From Candidatus Enterousia sp. (lineage in GTDB: Bacteria; Pseudomonadota; Alphaproteobacteria; Rs-D84), in contig JAZQCG010000001.1 of the NCBI GenBank assembly GCA_045546155.1, positions 24,525 to 88,524 of the forward strand: a stretch of 64,000 bases of DNA, given 5' to 3'. Position numbers and translations under genes: made by a program. The notes below the pieces were generated by a model. The model was not told where the DNA came from, made no database searches, and saw nothing but the letters and a program-made list of their open reading frames with translations. Shown here piece after piece: positions 1 through 41,600 of this stretch (position 1 is the first letter of the stretch; the number at the start of each line of letters is the position of its first letter).

Positions 1-10
1 ACACACTCTC

Positions 11-28
11 GTCATCCCGGCGCAGGCC
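11..28. repeat. Decayed copy of the REP-like hairpin element (GTCATCCCGGCGCAGGCC)
   Basis: Aligns to the left half of the 51-77 repeat (GTCAT-CCCG-CGCAGGC); the right arm is lost. Confidence 0.4.
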
Positions 29-50
29 TTAGATTTATTCTCGTACTTTT

Positions 51-77
51 GTCATTCCCGCGCAGGCGGGAATAGGG
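51..77. repeat. REP-like hairpin repeat, left copy (GTCATTCCCGCGCAGGCGGGAATAGGG)
   Basis: Contains an 8-bp stem, 4-nt loop hairpin ATTCCCGC-GCAG-GCGGGAAT (54-73). It is the perfect reverse complement of 448-474. Confidence 0.9.
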
Positions 78-78
78 G

Positions 79-408
79 CTATTTAATTTCTTTGTTTTTC
101 CAATACGCTATATTCTTTTCTAATTCATCTGCTAAATCAATCCAATCTGGATTCATTGTTTCAATTAGTCTGTATTTCCAAGAACGATTCCATTTTTTTA
201 GCTGCTTTTCTCGTGCAATTGCATTATTGATATACTGATATCTTTCAAAGTATCCCAGTTTATGAATATTGTTTTCTTTGGTATATCCATCATCCAGTCC
301 CATTTTGTGTTCATACATACGCCGTTCCAAATTGTTGGTAACGCCGATATATGTTGCCTTGGCACGTTCATCAAATAAAATATATACCCAAAAATTATAA
401 TCTTTCAT
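79..408 (-). CDS. GIY-YIG nuclease family protein (COG2827/UPF0213-like)
   Basis: Motifs WVYIL...YIGVTNNLERRMYEH...REKQLKKWNRSWKYRLI...NPDW.DL. Start taken at the MKDYNFW Met (406-408); the track ORF extends to 435. Confidence 0.8.
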   Translation of the reverse strand: MKDYNFWVYILFDERAKATYIGVTNNLERRMYEHKMGLDDGYTKENNIHKLGYFERYQYINNAIAREKQLKKWNRSWKYRLIETMNPDWIDLADELEKNIAYWKNKEIK

Positions 409-447
409 AGATAACATACTAATAAATATACACAAAGATTTTCAAGA

Positions 448-474
448 CCCTATTCCCGCCTGCGCGGGAATGAC
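448..474. repeat. REP-like hairpin repeat, right copy (inverted)
   Basis: CCCTATTCCCGCCTGCGCGGGAATGAC is the exact reverse complement of 51-77. Confidence 0.9.
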
Positions 475-694
475 AAAAATTTATTAATAATTGAATAACT
501 CTAACATTTACGATATAATTTTTCATGAATTCACATGCTATAAAAGCCTGCTTAAGATACAGACAAATAAACTTTTTTATATAGATTTTAGTAAATTTTA
601 TTATATAATTAACACTGTTACGGTGGTTACCGTGATGGGGCTTAACAACCCGCATAGCTGTCCGAACAGACAAAAAATCCAAACTCAAAATTCT

Positions 695-794
695 GGGGTT
701 GGATGGTCGCTTAATATATTGAATAAGTGACGCTATTGCTATGATAGTTGTTAACGTCCAGCCCCATCTGTTTTTTACAGATGGTTTTTATTTT
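695..794 (+). ncRNA. Candidate structured small RNA or 5' leader ending in an orphan intrinsic terminator
   Basis: 11-bp helix 695-705/755-765 (two G-U pairs) encloses an 8-bp hairpin 706-713/724-731. It is followed by terminator CCATCTGT-TTTTT-ACAGATGG (764-784) and a T-run to 794. No plus-strand gene lies upstream. Confidence 0.35.
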
Positions 795-814
795 CAACCA
801 AAAGGGCTTTGGAT

Positions 815-1045
815 ATGAACGATGATTATGAACTGCGGGCGATTTTACATGAATTAGAACAATTTTTCAGATTGCATCCAAATTATGAAATAAATGGGCT
901 AACACTGCTGACGTTACAAAATATTGTACATAAACAGGTTGCTTTATATCTTTTACGCGCAAAACGTTATATCGTTGAAATCCAAGAAGCAGATTCTGAT
1001 ATAAGTATCAGGGAAATTATTCATCGAAAAAAATACAGATTCTAA
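815..1045 (+). CDS. Hypothetical protein (about 76 aa)
   Basis: ORF followed by a terminator hairpin. No motif recognised. ATG at 815 is preferred over the TTG at 809. Confidence 0.45.
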   Translation: MNDDYELRAILHELEQFFRLHPNYEINGLTLLTLQNIVHKQVALYLLRAKRYIVEIQEADSDISIREIIHRKKYRF

Positions 1046-1049
1046 AACA

Positions 1050-1075
1050 AAAACACCGGCATTTGCCGGTGTTTT
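1050..1075. terminator. Bidirectional intrinsic terminator, CCGGCATTTGCCGG family
   Basis: AAAACACCGGC-ATTT-GCCGGTGTTTT with an A-run upstream and a T-run downstream, between convergent genes. Confidence 0.75.
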
Positions 1076-2968: not shown

Positions 2969-3916
2969 TTATTTTATCATTTCTTCTGCTAGATACCTAT
3001 CGTATAACAGGTTAAAAAGTTCTTTCTTTAATTGTTCAATTGGTTTAATTTTTCCGCGCGCATTTCTGTATGGGGTTTTAACGCGTTCACTTGCGCAATC
3101 AAAATAGCAATCACCATTACTATCAAATGTAATTGTATGTACGTCTCCTGGTTTTGAAAAAGATTTTATAAAAGAACTTTGTTTTGTTGCGATTTTATTA
3201 TCAAAAGCACGTCCAAGATTATCAATTCCATGATATGGTTCTATAACAATATATTTTTCTTTACCACAGAACAGGTTTGCATCAATCTTAGCAAACTCAT
3301 TTTTAGGCTTGTTTTTCAAGTCTAACATAATTTTATATTTTTCTGCCAGTTGTACAAATGTATCAGTTAAAAAATCTGGTGAATCATAAAATATATGCAC
3401 ATTAGCGCGTCGGGACAATTTATCGTTGTTATAAAACCATTTCAAAAATTCAATAGTTGTTGTGGCGGATTGTGGATGAAATTTATCCAGTGACAAATGA
3501 TAAGAAAAATATGCATTTGGATTTTTATAAAAATAAGATTCCAGGTCATTAAAAATAACCGATGCATTTTCAGTTAATGTCCAACCTGCATTAGTTTTTA
3601 ATTCAATTGTAAATCCGGCCCGTGTCAATGTCTTCATAATATTTGGAATATAATACGGTGCGTATTTATAAGCCATCATTGGTTCGCCACCACTAATAAC
3701 AGCAATAGGCATTTTATTTTTTGTGTATCTAAAATCTTCGGCGATTGCACGCACATCGGCAATTGGAATAAATGTCGGTTCCGCGTTTGGACCACTGCGT
3801 TCACAACAATGTGCACAACAGTAATTGCACAGATTTGTAATTTTAAAAAATGGCGACCATACGAAATTATTATCCAACCAATAACAAAATTCCGCACGCG
3901 ATAAAATATTCTTCAT
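2969..3916 (-). CDS. Radical SAM-like protein, uncharacterised family (paralog 1)
   Basis: CNYCCAHC fits CxxxCxxC. Also has GGEP and KTNAGW motifs. Clear paralog of 52535-53545. Confidence 0.7.
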   Translation of the reverse strand: MKNILSRAEFCYWLDNNFVWSPFFKITNLCNYCCAHCCERSGPNAEPTFIPIADVRAIAEDFRYTKNKMPIAVISGGEPMMAYKYAPYYIPNIMKTLTRAGFTIELKTNAGWTLTENASVIFNDLESYFYKNPNAYFSYHLSLDKFHPQSATTTIEFLKWFYNNDKLSRRANVHIFYDSPDFLTDTFVQLAEKYKIMLDLKNKPKNEFAKIDANLFCGKEKYIVIEPYHGIDNLGRAFDNKIATKQSSFIKSFSKPGDVHTITFDSNGDCYFDCASERVKTPYRNARGKIKPIEQLKKELFNLLYDRYLAEEMIK

Positions 3917-3968
3917 AAAACATAATATAACACAAAATTTAATTATGTCAAATTCAAGAATCGATTCA

Positions 3969-5585
3969 CTACAAAGAAATCAACTTTTCTATTTTTTCAC
4001 GTGCTTTTGCCAGGGCTTCATCTATTTGATTTAATTCATCACGTACGGATTCATCGCCGGCCAATAATTGTGCGGTTAATTCCTTCTTTTGAATGTTTAA
4101 TTTATCCAGATAACGTTGCAGTTTAAGTGACACAATATATTTTTCTGCATCCCCCAGGCTTAAATCTAAATCAGCCGCCGCCCCATCAAAATCAATATTC
4201 AGTGTTGATAAAAATTCGCCATAACGTTCAACGATTTCTGGATAAGTGTTCACAATATAAACCAGTGTAGTTTGTGTGATTTTATCAATATCAGGTAACT
4301 TTATTAATGGTTTGTTTACGTCACGTTTCCATTTCCGCCATGTTTCGAATTTACGCTTTTCGTATTCTTTACTTATCTCTGATTTTAAATCATTGTCTGT
4401 GATTTTATCTATTTCAGATTTCAAAAATTTTTCAGCCTGAACACGTCCACCAGGTGTTGATACAACAAAGTTTGTATTTGCAGTTTGCCACAAGAAATCA
4501 ACCAATGGCATGGCATCATCAATAATCTTTTTCATTGCATCAATGCCACCGGTTTTTAATATTTCATCTGGGTCTTTGCCACCAGTAACGAACGCAAATT
4601 TTACATCTGAATTATCACGCAAAAAAGGCATCACAATACCGCATGCACGCACAGCAGCCTTTTGACCTGCATTATCACCATCAAAGCAAAAAGTGATATT
4701 ACGATTAGATTTACATAATATTGCAATATGATCTTCGGTTAATGCTGTGCCCAATGGTGCAACCGTTTCTGGAAAACCATTTTCTTGCATTTTTATTGCA
4801 TCAATTTGCCCTTCGACTACAATACTGCGATTTGCGCGATAAATAGCATCACGTGCAAAATTTAAACCAAACACAGTCTTTCTTTTGTGAAAAATATCTG
4901 TATCACTTGTGTTTATGTATTTTGGTTCTGAACCATCCAGTGACCGTCCCGAAAAAGCAACAATCTGACCGCGTGGATTAAATATAGGAAACATTAATTT
5001 ATCACGAAAGAAATCATATAATCCAAATTCACCACGACGACACAATCCAGTTGCGATTAAATTTTCTTGTTTTTCATTTGCAAATTTATTGGCAATAAAA
5101 TTTTTCTTGGGCGCATATCCAATACGATATTTTTTTATCATATCATCGCTAAATCCACGTCTACGCACGTATTCCAGGGCTTGCGCCCCTTCGTCTGTGA
5201 ATAATTTTTCTTGATATGCACTTGCGGCTGCATCGCAAATTTTAAAATAAGAATTTTCACGGTTAACAATTTCAGCAGGTCTTGGGTTGCGTTCTGGCAT
5301 TTTAAGGCCGGCCATGTTTGCTAATTCTTGCATTGCAGCCATAAAATCCAAATGATCTGTTTCCATAACAAAAGAAAAAATATCACCATGTTTACCACAA
5401 CCAAAACAGTGATAAAATCCTTTGTCTTCGTTTACAGAAAAACTGGGGGTTTTTTCATTGTGAAACGGACAACAACCCCAATAATTTAATCCTTTTTTTG
5501 TTAATGGTACACGCCGTGAAACAACATCAACGATTGATAACCGTTCACGTATTTCATCTGTAAAATTGCGCCCAAAATTTGCCAT
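3969..5585 (-). CDS. dnaG: DNA primase
   Basis: Zinc finger CCPFHNEKTPSF...HCFGCG and a Toprim region (EGQIDA, DGDNAG). Confidence 0.93.
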   Translation of the reverse strand: MANFGRNFTDEIRERLSIVDVVSRRVPLTKKGLNYWGCCPFHNEKTPSFSVNEDKGFYHCFGCGKHGDIFSFVMETDHLDFMAAMQELANMAGLKMPERNPRPAEIVNRENSYFKICDAAASAYQEKLFTDEGAQALEYVRRRGFSDDMIKKYRIGYAPKKNFIANKFANEKQENLIATGLCRRGEFGLYDFFRDKLMFPIFNPRGQIVAFSGRSLDGSEPKYINTSDTDIFHKRKTVFGLNFARDAIYRANRSIVVEGQIDAIKMQENGFPETVAPLGTALTEDHIAILCKSNRNITFCFDGDNAGQKAAVRACGIVMPFLRDNSDVKFAFVTGGKDPDEILKTGGIDAMKKIIDDAMPLVDFLWQTANTNFVVSTPGGRVQAEKFLKSEIDKITDNDLKSEISKEYEKRKFETWRKWKRDVNKPLIKLPDIDKITQTTLVYIVNTYPEIVERYGEFLSTLNIDFDGAAADLDLSLGDAEKYIVSLKLQRYLDKLNIQKKELTAQLLAGDESVRDELNQIDEALAKAREKIEKLISL

Positions 5586-7825
5586 TAATTCTTTTTACTT
5601 TTATTGTTAATAAGTTTGATTGCTGTATCCAGATCCGGCATTTCTTTGACCGATACATTAACACGATTTGATGAAATATATGGTCCATAACGTCCCGTTG
5701 GATAAAAGAATATCATCTTTTTAGTTTCTGGATTTTCGCCGATTTTAATTGGTTCTGATTTTTTACCAGCATTTGTTAATAATTCACGTGCAATTTCCAG
5801 TGTAATCGTTTCCGATGTATATTGTTTTGCTGCTACATTTTTTGCACCGTCTGTTACATATGGTCCAAATTTTCCAACACGAAATTCAATACCATCACCC
5901 AATTCAACTGCATCTGAAATATTGCGCTGTACGCTGGATTCGTTGGTGTCCACTGGTTTGTCATTTTTATTTAATTGTTTTGTATATTTACAATTTGGGT
6001 AATTTTCACACCCGATAAACGGCCCAAATTTAGATAATTTAATACCTAATTTTTTACCACAATCTGGACATGTGTCGCCTGATTCTGCAAACAAATGTTT
6101 GTGCATAAATTCATTAATTTCATCAATAATATCAGATGTTTTGATACCACGCGCACCTTCTATCATTTCATTGGTTGGTTTCCAGAAGTTTTCCAATGCG
6201 GTTAATTTTTTAGTTTTTCCATTTGAAACATCGTCCAATGTATCTTCTGTTTTTGCAGTAAAGTTTACATCGACTAAATCTGTAAAATATTTATTCAGGT
6301 ATGATGCAATAACCCAACCGCCACTTGTTGGATGAAAACGACGTTGTTTATCTTGTTCAACATATGCACGATCAACAATCGTTGACATAATTGTAGCGTA
6401 CGTAGATGGACGTCCAATCCCCAGTTCTTCTAACTTTTTAACCAGTGATGCTTCGGTATATCGTGGTGGTGCTTGGGTAAAATGTTGTTCTGGGACAATT
6501 TCAGTAATTGAAATAATATCACCAACATTTAATACCGGTAATTTTGATTCCTTCTTTTCATCATCGTCATCTTTGTCTTCGGTATAAACCTTCATAAATC
6601 CGTCAAATGTACGTGTTGAACCAACTGCATGAAACACAGCAACTTTATTTTCTGTTTCAATGTCTGCGGCGACTGAATCAAATTCAGCATTTTTCATTTG
6701 GCACGCAATTGTACGTTTCCAAATCAAATCATATAATTTTGCTTCGTCCCCACTTAGCCCCTTGGCGGGTTCTTCAAAGTGTGTTGGACGAATTGCTTCG
6801 TGTGCTTCTTGGGCATTTTTAGATTTTGTTGCATAAACATTTGGTGCGCTTGGTACAAAATTTTCACCATATGTATTTGCAATATATTTACGAATTTCAT
6901 TAACAGCATCTGCGTTTAAATTTGTTGCGTCTGTACGCATATATGTAATTAATCCTTGTTCATACAGTTTTTGTGCCGCACTCATTGTGCGCTTTGATGC
7001 AAAATATAATTTACGCGCCGCTTCCTGTTGCAGGGTTGATGTTGTAAATGGTGCAGTTGGCTTACGCTGGGTCTTTTTCTTTTCAATATCAATAACCGTT
7101 GCAGATATTTCAGGCTTACCAATTTTATCAATGATATTATTTACCATATCTTGATTTTCGATGGTCATTTTTTCAATTTTTTGTCCATCAAATTTATTCA
7201 AGTTTGCTCTGAATTCTGCATTTTGAACCTTGCACACAGATTCCAACGACCAATATTCCACAGGCTTAAAATCTTCGATTTCTTTTTCACGATCAACGAC
7301 CAGTTTTACCGCCACAGATTGCACACGTCCCGCAGATTTCCCCAGGTTTCTCCGCCACAATAACGGTGAAATACCAAAACCGATTAAATAATCCAATGCG
7401 CGACGTACCAAATACGCATCAACCAAGTTTTTATCAATTTCGCGTGGATTTTCAATTGCTGCCTGAACTGCTTTTTTTGTAATTTCATGGAAAGCAACAC
7501 GATATACAGGCTTGTCTGTTAATAGTTTTTTTGCTTTTAATATGTCTAATAAATGCCATGCGATGGCTTCACCTTCGCGGTCCGGGTCGCTTGCCAGATA
7601 TACAGCATCGGCTTTTTTTAGTTCATCTGTGATAAGTTTTATTTGTTTCTCTTTACCTGGCATAATTTGCCAGCGCATTTTAAAGTTATTTTCTGTATCA
7701 ACACTGCCGTTTTCTGGAACTAAATCACGTACATGACCAACAGACGCAATAACGCGCCACCCGGCCCCCAGGTATTTTTCAATTGTTTTTGCTTTTGATG
7801 GTGATTCCACGATAAGCAGTTTCAT
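5585..7825 (-). CDS. topA: DNA topoisomerase I
   Basis: MKLLIVESPSKAKTIEKYLG, Toprim/Topo IA motifs and C-terminal Zn ribbons (CPDCG...CENYPNC). Confidence 0.95.
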   Translation of the reverse strand: MKLLIVESPSKAKTIEKYLGAGWRVIASVGHVRDLVPENGSVDTENNFKMRWQIMPGKEKQIKLITDELKKADAVYLASDPDREGEAIAWHLLDILKAKKLLTDKPVYRVAFHEITKKAVQAAIENPREIDKNLVDAYLVRRALDYLIGFGISPLLWRRNLGKSAGRVQSVAVKLVVDREKEIEDFKPVEYWSLESVCKVQNAEFRANLNKFDGQKIEKMTIENQDMVNNIIDKIGKPEISATVIDIEKKKTQRKPTAPFTTSTLQQEAARKLYFASKRTMSAAQKLYEQGLITYMRTDATNLNADAVNEIRKYIANTYGENFVPSAPNVYATKSKNAQEAHEAIRPTHFEEPAKGLSGDEAKLYDLIWKRTIACQMKNAEFDSVAADIETENKVAVFHAVGSTRTFDGFMKVYTEDKDDDDEKKESKLPVLNVGDIISITEIVPEQHFTQAPPRYTEASLVKKLEELGIGRPSTYATIMSTIVDRAYVEQDKQRRFHPTSGGWVIASYLNKYFTDLVDVNFTAKTEDTLDDVSNGKTKKLTALENFWKPTNEMIEGARGIKTSDIIDEINEFMHKHLFAESGDTCPDCGKKLGIKLSKFGPFIGCENYPNCKYTKQLNKNDKPVDTNESSVQRNISDAVELGDGIEFRVGKFGPYVTDGAKNVAAKQYTSETITLEIARELLTNAGKKSEPIKIGENPETKKMIFFYPTGRYGPYISSNRVNVSVKEMPDLDTAIKLINNKSKKN

Positions 7826-36277: not shown

Positions 36278-36643
36278 ATGAAAAAGTATTTACACAAATT
36301 ACCATTGTCTGTTGTTGCGGGGCTGTGCCTGATGGGGTGTGGTGGAAATCGTACAAATAACACAGATAATTTATATTCAGAATCCAATGATTATAAAATT
36401 GATACGGTTTACGTCTTAAACACACACCCAGCCACACACGCAACCGTCAAGCGTCTTTGGGCGACTGATAAATCGGGGACAGATTTTCAAGGCACATTTG
36501 ATTTGATGGATGACGTTGTTATGCCCCAGACCGGTGATATTGTTGTTTTGGCATCCAAACCAAATGCTATATTAGATAACTACAAGGTTATAAAAAATAT
36601 CACTGCTGAAAAACGAAAATCTGAATATATGAAATCCAAATAA
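36278..36643 (+). CDS. Lipoprotein, function unknown
   Basis: Signal peptide with lipobox LCLMGC|GG. ATG at 36278 preferred over the TTG at 36272. Confidence 0.65.
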   Translation: MKKYLHKLPLSVVAGLCLMGCGGNRTNNTDNLYSESNDYKIDTVYVLNTHPATHATVKRLWATDKSGTDFQGTFDLMDDVVMPQTGDIVVLASKPNAILDNYKVIKNITAEKRKSEYMKSK

Positions 36644-36669
36644 AAACACCGGCATTTGCCGGTGTTTTT
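36642..36669. terminator. Bidirectional intrinsic terminator, CCGGCATTTGCCGG family
   Basis: AAAAACACCGGC-ATTT-GCCGGTGTTTTT between convergent genes. Confidence 0.8.
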
Positions 36670-40013: not shown

Positions 40014-40733
40014 ATGAAACGTGTGCTTGTTGGTATTTTGTCGGTATTGGCATTGGGGGCATGTGATAAACATGACCCTATTTTGCCGGGTACGCGTTCC
40101 CCGATATTTGCAACGTCTAATATAACGGTTTTAAACCAAGATATTACAGATTTGCCAACCGGTGCGTATGCGGCATCTGATATTGATTGTCCATATACAC
40201 GTGATGCATCAAACGTTGTTTGGGATGGCACGCGCAAAGTATTCAGTGGTTTTGCCACAGATAATTCTGTTGCATCTGATATAAAACCTGTGTGCGCTGG
40301 TAAGTATATTTATGTTGGACTGACAACTGGCGAATTAGTAAAAATAGAGCCCAAGACCCGTAAAATAATGTGGATTGCCGATATTTATCGGGCCAGTAAC
40401 ATGACCGGTGGCGCATCCATGTTGGATATTGTTGCCGAACCAATTGTTTGTGATAAATATGTGTATGTGGGCGGCCTGGGGGATGCGTTTTGTAAAATAA
40501 ACGCGACGTCGGGTGCGCGCGTATGGTGCACGAATATTAGTGTTCCAACCGATTTTACCATTGCCGGCAACACAGCCTTTGTTTCTGGTGCAGACAAGAC
40601 ATTATATGCATTGCGCTTAACCGATGGTGCGGTATATTGGACCGCCCCAATTGAAAAAATTACCACACCGATTTATGAAAACAAAACTGTAACAGTTGGC
40701 AAACAGAAATTTAATGCAATAAATGGTAAATAA
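40014..40733 (+). CDS. BamB-like PQQ-repeat lipoprotein (unusually short, 239 aa)
   Basis: Lipobox LALGAC. Repeated G.L..I....G...W blades: GELVKIEPKTRKIMW, DAFCKINATSGARVW, KTLYALRLTDGAVYW. Confidence 0.65.
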   Translation: MKRVLVGILSVLALGACDKHDPILPGTRSPIFATSNITVLNQDITDLPTGAYAASDIDCPYTRDASNVVWDGTRKVFSGFATDNSVASDIKPVCAGKYIYVGLTTGELVKIEPKTRKIMWIADIYRASNMTGGASMLDIVAEPIVCDKYVYVGGLGDAFCKINATSGARVWCTNISVPTDFTIAGNTAFVSGADKTLYALRLTDGAVYWTAPIEKITTPIYENKTVTVGKQKFNAINGK

Positions 40734-40760
40734 AAAACACCGGCATTTGCCGGTATTTTT
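40733..40760. terminator. Bidirectional terminator, CCGGCATTTGCCGG family
   Basis: AAAAAACACCGGC-ATTT-GCCGGTATTTTT. Confidence 0.75.
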
Positions 40761-41374: not shown

Positions 41375-41569
41375 ATGACGTTTGGCCAGGAAATAGAGCA
41401 TATACGAAAACTGCGCGGATATACAATTATTGATATGTGCGATATTTTAGGTGTGCATGAATCCGAATATAAACATATAATTGCACATGGTGGCCCATTG
41501 AATACGTACCAAAAAATATCCCTTGTTATTGCGATGGAATATCCTTTTTATTCGATGCCAAAAAATTAA
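41375..41569 (+). CDS. Small XRE-family helix-turn-helix protein (64 aa)
   Basis: IRKLRGYTIIDMCDILGVHESEYKHI fits an HTH_XRE pattern. A GGGGG Shine-Dalgarno sits 7 nt upstream. Confidence 0.65.
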   Translation: MTFGQEIEHIRKLRGYTIIDMCDILGVHESEYKHIIAHGGPLNTYQKISLVIAMEYPFYSMPKN

Positions 41570-41570
41570 C

Positions 41571-41600
41571 AAAAACACCGGCATTTGCCGGCGTTTTTTT
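41571..41600. terminator. Bidirectional terminator, CCGGCATTTGCCGG family
   Basis: AAAAACACCGGC-ATTT-GCCGGCGTTTTTTT, overlapping the accC stop. Confidence 0.75.

Follow-up and report, generated by a model that had tools for sequence, protein, structure and literature searches.

Proteins of the Ssn family, which consist of a single GIY-YIG domain (cd10448), were recently described as site-specific endonucleases of single-stranded DNA (ssDNA; Chenal et al., Nat Commun 2025, PMC11893778). In Neisseria meningitidis, the family is represented by SsnA (94 aa), which binds the NTS hairpin CGTCATTCCCGCGMAVGCGGGAATCYRG solely as ssDNA and cleaves a few nucleotides upstream of it, and each of the exchanges Y6A, Y17A and E64A abolishes cleavage. 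ssDNA-only binding and cleavage 5' of the hairpin were shown for four homologues, including ones from Neisseria and Wolbachia, and 42% of the Ssn homologues have “Ssn-related motifs” (SRM) on both sides of the gene. The published SRM pattern includes the 3' tail RNCYNB, and the C right after the palindrome was the most important single base for binding by the meningococcal enzyme (Chenal et al., 2025). The role proposed in Neisseria is a modulation of transformation at hundreds of hairpin sites genome-wide; in addition, the authors likened the NTS-ssnA-NTS arrangement to an insertion sequence and compared it with repetitive extragenic palindromic (REP) and IS200 elements, a mobility that was speculated upon but not demonstrated (Chenal et al., 2025).

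Here, we analyzed a 64,000-nt stretch of DNA from Candidatus Enterousia sp. (contig JAZQCG010000001.1; in the following “the window”), an uncultured gut alphaproteobacterium. Positions 47–478 very likely represent an SRM-ssn-SRM cassette, i.e., the gene of an Ssn-type ssDNA nuclease placed between inverted copies of the hairpin that it presumably recognizes, one on each side. Judged by its sequence, the system of the window belongs to the published Ssn/SRM pair with its NTS-ssnA-NTS architecture, and does not represent a system of a new kind.

The ssn gene and its flanking hairpins

The gene at 79–408 (minus strand), which an initial annotation made from the letters alone had recognized as a 109-codon GIY-YIG open reading frame (ORF), encodes a 109-aa protein matching the Pfam family GIY-YIG (PF01541) with an E-value of 9e-16. 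The domain spans residues 6–79, there is no other domain, and the start ATG is the one also used by relatives. Contrary to the initial annotation, the family does have an assigned biochemical function, and similarity to the UPF0213 type proposed there is only marginal: a PDB sequence search returned marginal UPF0213 and UvrC matches (UPF0213 structures 1ywl and 1zg2 at E 0.04 and 0.1) and no Ssn structure among its matches, and the search of NCBIfam gave only a sub-threshold match to the intron-endonuclease model TIGR01453 (17.1 bits, cut-off 56). Comparison with the SsnA orthologue of Neisseria gonorrhoeae revealed 47% identity over 85 aa without gaps (tblastn E 5e-17, pairwise E 1e-26). For this test, the 94-aa frame of the gonococcal orthologue, which has Y6, Y17 and E64, stood in for the meningococcal protein, and by way of it the window protein lies within the published bounds of Ssn membership (E < 1e-10 over >75% of the length of Neisseria SsnA). 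Y9, Y20, R30, H34, E67 and N86 are invariant in a family alignment with 14 relatives, and Y9, Y20 and E67 correspond to the published mutation sites Y6, Y17 and E64. With a single GIY-YIG domain of about 100 aa and the same Tyr/Tyr/Glu spacing, the protein can be placed in the Ssn family (cd10448), which belongs to the same superfamily as UPF0213 but forms another subfamily.

At E ≤ 0.001, 4556 database clusters belong to the family. Among named genomes, Alphaproteobacteria metagenome-assembled genomes (MAGs) of sheep-colon and roe-deer-caecum origin come closest (87% identical), Candidatus Enterousia follows with 69%, and more distant members are spread over many phyla. No homologue was found among 50,697 phage records, and the 64-kb window holds no second ssn-like gene or coding motif. 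The gonococcal sequences stem from two 2.17-Mb chromosomes, NZ_CP119142.1 and NZ_CP119140.1, which are labelled as plasmids in PLSDB. On the former (L127, 1494–1776; loci and contigs used for comparison carry L numbers throughout), the 94-aa ssnA frame and the closest ATG upstream of it are not in the same reading frame, and the gene may therefore be frameshifted in this strain.

On both sides, the gene is bracketed by the 27-mer GTCATTCCCGCGCAGGCGGGAATAGGG, which occurs in exactly two copies in the whole window, at 51–77 (+) and 448–474 (–), with 0 mismatches (0.00 copies expected from shuffles). The perfect copies had been noticed in the initial annotation, as had their 8-bp stem and 4-nt loop, and both arms indeed fold in this way as ssDNA (dG –9.1 kcal/mol, z about –4, and –3.98 for the stop-side arm with its hairpin at 54–73). 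Together with an outer TTTT, the perfect inverted repeat measures 31 nt, with the stop-side arm at 47–77 (+) and the ATG-side arm at 448–478 (–), and a repeat finder extends the arms imperfectly to 49 nt (47–95 and 430–478, 84% complementary). A single base (78) lies between the left 27-mer and the ssn stop codon, and the right 27-mer is found 39 nt from the ATG; the initial values, a left copy abutting the stop without spacer and a distance of 40 nt, are to be corrected accordingly. Likewise, the unit that recurs across genomes is 47–478 with 432 bp, and not 51–474 with about 424 bp. The arms are convergent, i.e., both GTCAT ends point outward and the AGGG tails point toward the gene.

Searches for further copies of the hairpin, of its 12-nt 5' half and of the SRM core found none beyond the two arms in the 64 kb, as the initial annotation had stated. 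The strict published SRM and NTS patterns gave 0 matches in the window, and a core pattern used in their place matched only twice, at 50–70 (+) and 455–475 (–). All 23 of 23 bases of the hairpin core GTCATTCCCGCGCAGGCGGGAAT equal the neisserial NTS consensus, and the 3.2 kb around gonococcal ssnA hold six exact copies of this 23-mer. The dRS3 form ATTCCC-N8-GGGAAT is matched exactly at 54–73 and 452–471; the initial comparison with neisserial dRS3 repeats was thus correct, and the system behind it is Ssn/SRM. Rfam yielded only chance-level FtrB matches for the hairpins (E 0.5–0.9). Inside the cassette, a weakly indicated promoter-like site for ssn (416–445, minus strand; TTGAAA, 18 nt, TAGTAT; 9/12 consensus matches) begins with its first hexamer 3 nt past the AGGG tail. 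By consensus scan, the number of promoter-like sites in this region is not above that in shuffles, and the motif AGGGNCTTG is kept in the relatives L008–L017, L018, L031 and L032.

In comparison to the published system, the window thus shares a gene bracketed by inverted, GTCAT-flanked, GC-rich hairpins with an identical 23-nt core. However, the 3' tail of its hairpin reads AGGG in place of the published CYRG, and the key C is replaced by A. Whereas the arms of the window are convergent, the nearest copies at the gonococcal gene are divergent, and the two hairpins in 64 kb contrast with hundreds per Neisseria genome. The host, too, differs. From the sequence, we read the AGGG tail as a probable specificity variant and not as an exclusion from Ssn/SRM. 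Since this variant is missed by the published SRM pattern, pattern-based surveys undercount the Ssn family.

Hairpins at ssn genes across genomes

Across phyla, such hairpins cluster strongly at ssn genes. For 80 genome loci, together about 691 kb long, an approximate tally made by hand gave 133 SRM-core matches, of which about 69 fell within 150 nt of the ends of ssn genes, a zone making up 3.5% of the sequence, and the density there was about 30 times that of the remaining sequence. At least one near-gene copy was present in 39 of the 80 loci. The initial annotation had asked whether other genes of this kind are flanked in the same way, and this is the case: a convergent pair as in the window (+ upstream, – downstream) was found at 14 loci, with L031 as a fifteenth recognized by eye, as it carries a compensated hairpin variant overlooked by the core pattern.

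An alignment of 36 arms from 18 loci showed an invariant GTCA, 97.9% of cells paired and compensatory double changes in four of the eight stem pairs, a covariation score reached by 0 of 500 shuffles, with the caveat that most arms had been chosen with a loosely symmetric pattern. Moreover, distinct protein subtypes are paired with distinct hairpin subtypes, as in the published system. The 3' tail ATAGGG occurs in the window and in its close relatives L009, L018, L031 and L032, whose proteins are 79–87% identical, and ATCCAG-like tails are found elsewhere; a paralogue with 41% identity in L112 is accompanied by an ATCCAT-tailed hairpin with a different stem.

A metagenome scan with the AGGG-type 27-mer returned 94 stretches, only about 6–8 of which adjoin an ssn-like gene. 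All seven inverted pairs among them are convergent, two enclosing a gene and five being doublets with spacers of 62–91 nt, and the three solo copies checked all lie between genes.

Allelic states of one chromosomal site

The identical 109-aa protein is present on eight metagenome contigs, and five states occur at one chromosomal site among very closely related gut alphaproteobacteria: the cassette in either of two orientations, its replacement by a paralogue, its deletion to a half hairpin, and the absence of the whole region. The insertion polymorphism that the initial annotation had suggested looking for therefore exists, as presence or absence, as replacement and in both orientations. In fact, contigs with 100% identical YchF differ downstream of it in four ways.

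Inversion is best seen in L004, the flanks of which are collinear with the window by blastn (L004 667–1310 corresponds to window 432–1074 at 97.7%, and 241–330 to window 4–95), and the interior of which is flipped (284–715 corresponds to window 478 to 47 in reverse). Toward the ychF flank, the ATG side adjoins in the window and L123, and the stop side in L002, L004, L005, L007, L120 and L122; L122 and L123 carry opposite orientations on a common flank haplotype. Toward the rpmJ side, the stop-side arm is found in the window and L001, and the ATG-side arm in L003, L004, L005 and L120. Four arrangements of the short flank modules X, Y and A occur; L002, for instance, has X in both flanks and L006 has Y in both. 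In the window, module X spans 479–535 (about 57 nt). It can adjoin either arm, and among contigs L001–L007 it lies at the ATG end of the cassette, at the stop end or at both ends; it bears an outward promoter-like site at 491–519 (TTGAAT, 17 nt, TATAAT; 10/12 matches). With ATTCCC-N8-GGGAAT hairpins and modules between them that combine in a mosaic-like manner across contigs, the locus resembles the dRS3/NIME elements, but the host is not Neisseria, a many-unit array is absent and the inter-repeat unit is the nuclease gene itself.

A second inversion was detected between L022 and L028 (a 72%-identical relative), in which a gene-less 91-nt spacer between hairpins is flipped within identical flanks. 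Between the window and L006, the interior has flipped but a single-nucleotide polymorphism at position 28 of the arm has remained with its flank, so that this crossover lay at the inner edge of the arm and not on the side of predicted cleavage. Inversion of a spacer between short inverted repeats needs no dedicated enzyme, recombination or template switching being sufficient, and the inversions are most simply by-products of such events between the 31–49-nt inverted arms. Assembly chimeras were considered as their cause and rejected, as the arms of 31–49 nt are far shorter than the k-mer given in the contig names (k141) and each orientation recurs in independent samples.

Turning to the remaining states, L111 and L116 lack the cassette together with an adjacent 0.6-kb region. 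In L112, the same place is occupied by a 105-aa paralogue (5258–5697), which shares 41% identity with the window protein and 52% with gonococcal SsnA and is flanked by inverted GTCATCCCGGCGCAGGCCGGGATCCAT on both sides. Just upstream of this cassette (about 5222–5244), we observed a truncated GTCAT-led hairpin, GTCATCCCGTGGCTTGACCACGC, the intact form of which is found in L012, L015 and L017. L119 represents a cassette-free allele: it shares the 76-aa ORF and the flanks, and 485 nt are missing. Its gap ends in the hairpin loop, leaving the outer half-hairpin (window 458–474 with one mismatch), the junction shows the 6-nt microhomology GCCTGC, and the neighbouring Y module is missing as well. 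By these three marks the allele bears a deletion signature, and resembles the product of a microhomology deletion more than that of a clean excision.

The window itself carries a broken hairpin at 10–32 (+), which had been taken for a third, decayed copy of the arms. It consists of the first 18 nt of the other hairpin subtype GTCATCCCGGCGCAGGCCGGGATCCAT, i.e., GTCATCCCGGCGCAGGCC with a break after GGCC; the intact form of this subtype is present in L112. The truncated piece is unique in the window, has no fold (z 0.16), and is what remains of a former or alternative cassette in this place. Of five truncated hairpins, four retain GTCAT together with the 5' arm and loop, and break off 2–4 nt later (window 10–32, L119 1249–1265, and L018 2880–2903 and 3355–3430); in L018, four half-sites form a 24-nt tandem array adjoining the cassette. 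The fifth case (L023 3392–3404) breaks earlier, within the loop. In L028 (669–730), a 44-nt insertion, itself a hairpin, is located exactly in the loop of an Ssn hairpin.

Further observations were made in the neighbourhood. Between the outward promoter-like site at 491–519 and a terminator-like hairpin with a T-run (764–784), the segment 520–800 (+) has a strong RNA fold (minimum free energy –74.3 kcal/mol, z –5.0) and is a candidate small RNA, for which no Rfam family matched. This segment is conserved in L004, L112 and L119 and is absent, together with the 76-aa ORF (815–1045), in L111 and L116. A 7-nt tandem repeat, CACTAAC/CACCAAC, is located at 1076–1127 between the ychF stop codon and a hairpin at 1050–1075, and its copy number varies among contigs encoding identical YchF. 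The latter hairpin belongs to a recurring type, AAAACACCGGCA..TGCCGGTGTTTT (1050–1075, about 36638–36668, 40719–40759 and 41568–41597), which is unrelated to the Ssn hairpin, in line with the initial statement that ordinary terminators of this DNA use a different stereotyped hairpin. A radical-SAM gene at 2969–3916, between a 226-aa gene and dnaG, is missing in L111, L112 and L113 despite the same gene order and identical YchF, and a homologous radical-SAM gene is present about 2 kb from the cassette in L032.

Predicted cleavage, possible mobility and rival explanations

Following the published biochemistry, the hairpin would fold when the region becomes single-stranded, e.g., during replication or in incoming ssDNA. 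The protein would then read both the shape and the sequence of the hairpin, namely the GTCAT flank, the stem and the 3' tail, and the folded strand would be cut a few nucleotides 5' of GTCAT. Cuts are predicted in the T-run at about 44–50 on the top strand and 475–481 on the bottom strand; as the arms are convergent, this would leave one cuttable site per strand, at the outer edge of the cassette. We infer that the window protein may bind and cut its AGGG-tailed hairpin, and hairpin action, one of the activities initially proposed for the unit, is most likely in light of the biochemistry of its homologues. Cleavage of the AGGG-tailed variant is nevertheless extrapolated, since the published pattern failed and an A follows the palindrome. 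Three observations weigh against the reading as an Ssn nuclease with its cognate hairpins. Firstly, the arm fails the full SRM pattern, with A replacing the C critical for binding. Secondly, with two hairpins in 64 kb, a genome-wide transformation role of the Neisseria type is not evident. Thirdly, the breakpoints, comprising the truncated copies, the L119 junction and the inner-edge polymorphism, do not match the published cut 5' of GTCAT.

Taken together, the SRM-ssn-SRM cassette is most likely a semi-selfish, recombination-prone module, the hairpins of which could occasionally spread as solos or doublets, rather than a housekeeping gene. An autonomous element resembling an insertion sequence could be envisaged: the nuclease would introduce a nick into each strand where the arms end on the outside, the unit would be copied or moved by replication or repair of the host, and gene-less doublets would represent non-autonomous, REPIN-like derivatives. 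In favour of such an element, the unit ends sharply, a few nucleotides outside GTCAT, in unrelated contexts (the window versus L032, L031, L018 and L009), and relatives reside at non-syntenic positions: next to rpmJ and ychF in the window, infC and a VirD4-like gene in L032, adhesin-like and DedA-like genes in L031, PBP1A in L018, and a tRNA and an outer-membrane factor in L022. The Bdellovibrionales MAG L089 even harbours two SRM-ssn-SRM cassettes (1209–1592 and 3674–4057) only 2.4 kb apart, with 100% identical arms, genes that are about 85% identical and unrelated flanks, homology being lost within about 8–12 nt outside the arms. Presence or absence among contigs with identical YchF or identical 76-aa ORF, the other Ssn/hairpin cassette at the same site in L112 with its relic in the window, the two orientations and the gene-less convergent doublets with 62–91-nt spacers point in the same direction. 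However, no target-site duplication is visible by eye, the empty allele of L119 bears the deletion signature described above, the window holds one copy in 64 kb, and the phage records gave no match. Of the features of insertion sequences, inverted ends are thus present and a known transposase domain is absent, with one copy in the window and two diverged ones in L089. Furthermore, GIY-YIG enzymes hydrolyse DNA, with neither a covalent intermediate nor strand transfer being known for them. An autonomous element of this type hence appears possible but rather improbable; the polymorphism fits mobility and does not prove transposition, so that the mobile unit initially proposed remains unproven on this side.

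A comparison with REP/REPIN systems and their REP-associated tyrosine transposases (RAYT) as well as with IS200/IS605, drawn in the initial annotation and by the authors of the Ssn study alike (Chenal et al., 2025), is valid as an analogy. Short GC-rich extragenic hairpins acting in ssDNA, an enzyme gene between inverted copies of its own hairpin and gene-less inverted doublets in relatives (L022, L134 and others) are common to them. The window cassette is nevertheless not a RAYT system, because it encodes no HUH/tyrosine transposase and only a GIY-YIG domain, and its copy number is far lower. On a tentative note, SRM-ssn-SRM units could be mobile, invertible elements of a new hairpin-guided ssDNA class with a GIY-YIG hydrolase in place of an HUH (Y1) transposase, in which solos and doublets would be non-autonomous progeny and breakpoints 3' of the loop the footprint of the reaction; we regard this as a speculative option with less than even chances. 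Homing endonucleases of the I-TevI type share the catalytic fold and the occurrence as small, patchily distributed genes, but the window protein has no C-terminal DNA-binding domain, its gene is not in an intron or phage, and the recognition sites flank the gene and are not disrupted by it.

Alternatively, the 432-bp segment could be a programmed switch flipped by a recombinase to regulate ssn or a neighbour by phase variation. Both orientations do occur between identical flanking regions, and samples independent of each other show this: L004, L005, L120 and L122 have the segment inverted as compared with the window and L123. The gene-less 91-nt segment is inverted between L022 and L028, although such flipping, as said, requires no enzyme of its own. 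The promoter-like site for ssn, however, is part of the segment and is inverted along with the gene, and the outward site at 491–519 lies outside, so that flipping alters no obvious connection between promoter and gene. With the promoter-like site travelling with the gene and a recombinase absent among the neighbours (topoisomerase I, DnaG, SufBD-like, YchF, L36, VirB3 and VirB4), such a switch is highly unlikely. That the hairpins are ordinary transcript-end or mRNA-stabilizing stem-loops or REP-type repeats with no link to the nuclease is scarcely credible: one arm does follow the stop codon after 1 nt and solo copies lie between genes in other metagenome contigs, but a T-run is absent after the stem and the terminator scan calls neither arm, the other arm is upstream of a promoter-like site, an alphaproteobacterium and Neisseria have the sequence in common and not only the structure, hairpin subtypes go with protein subtypes, the density at ssn genes is about 30-fold, and the usual terminators of the window are a different hairpin.

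The Ssn/SRM architecture was already known (Chenal et al., 2025), and the cassette-level polymorphism, which is absent from that description, is the new part and the one worth following up. In this context, the AGGG-tailed variant might provide a new pair of enzyme and site for ssDNA tools. The locus with its five states offers a natural test bed for the mobility of such cassettes.

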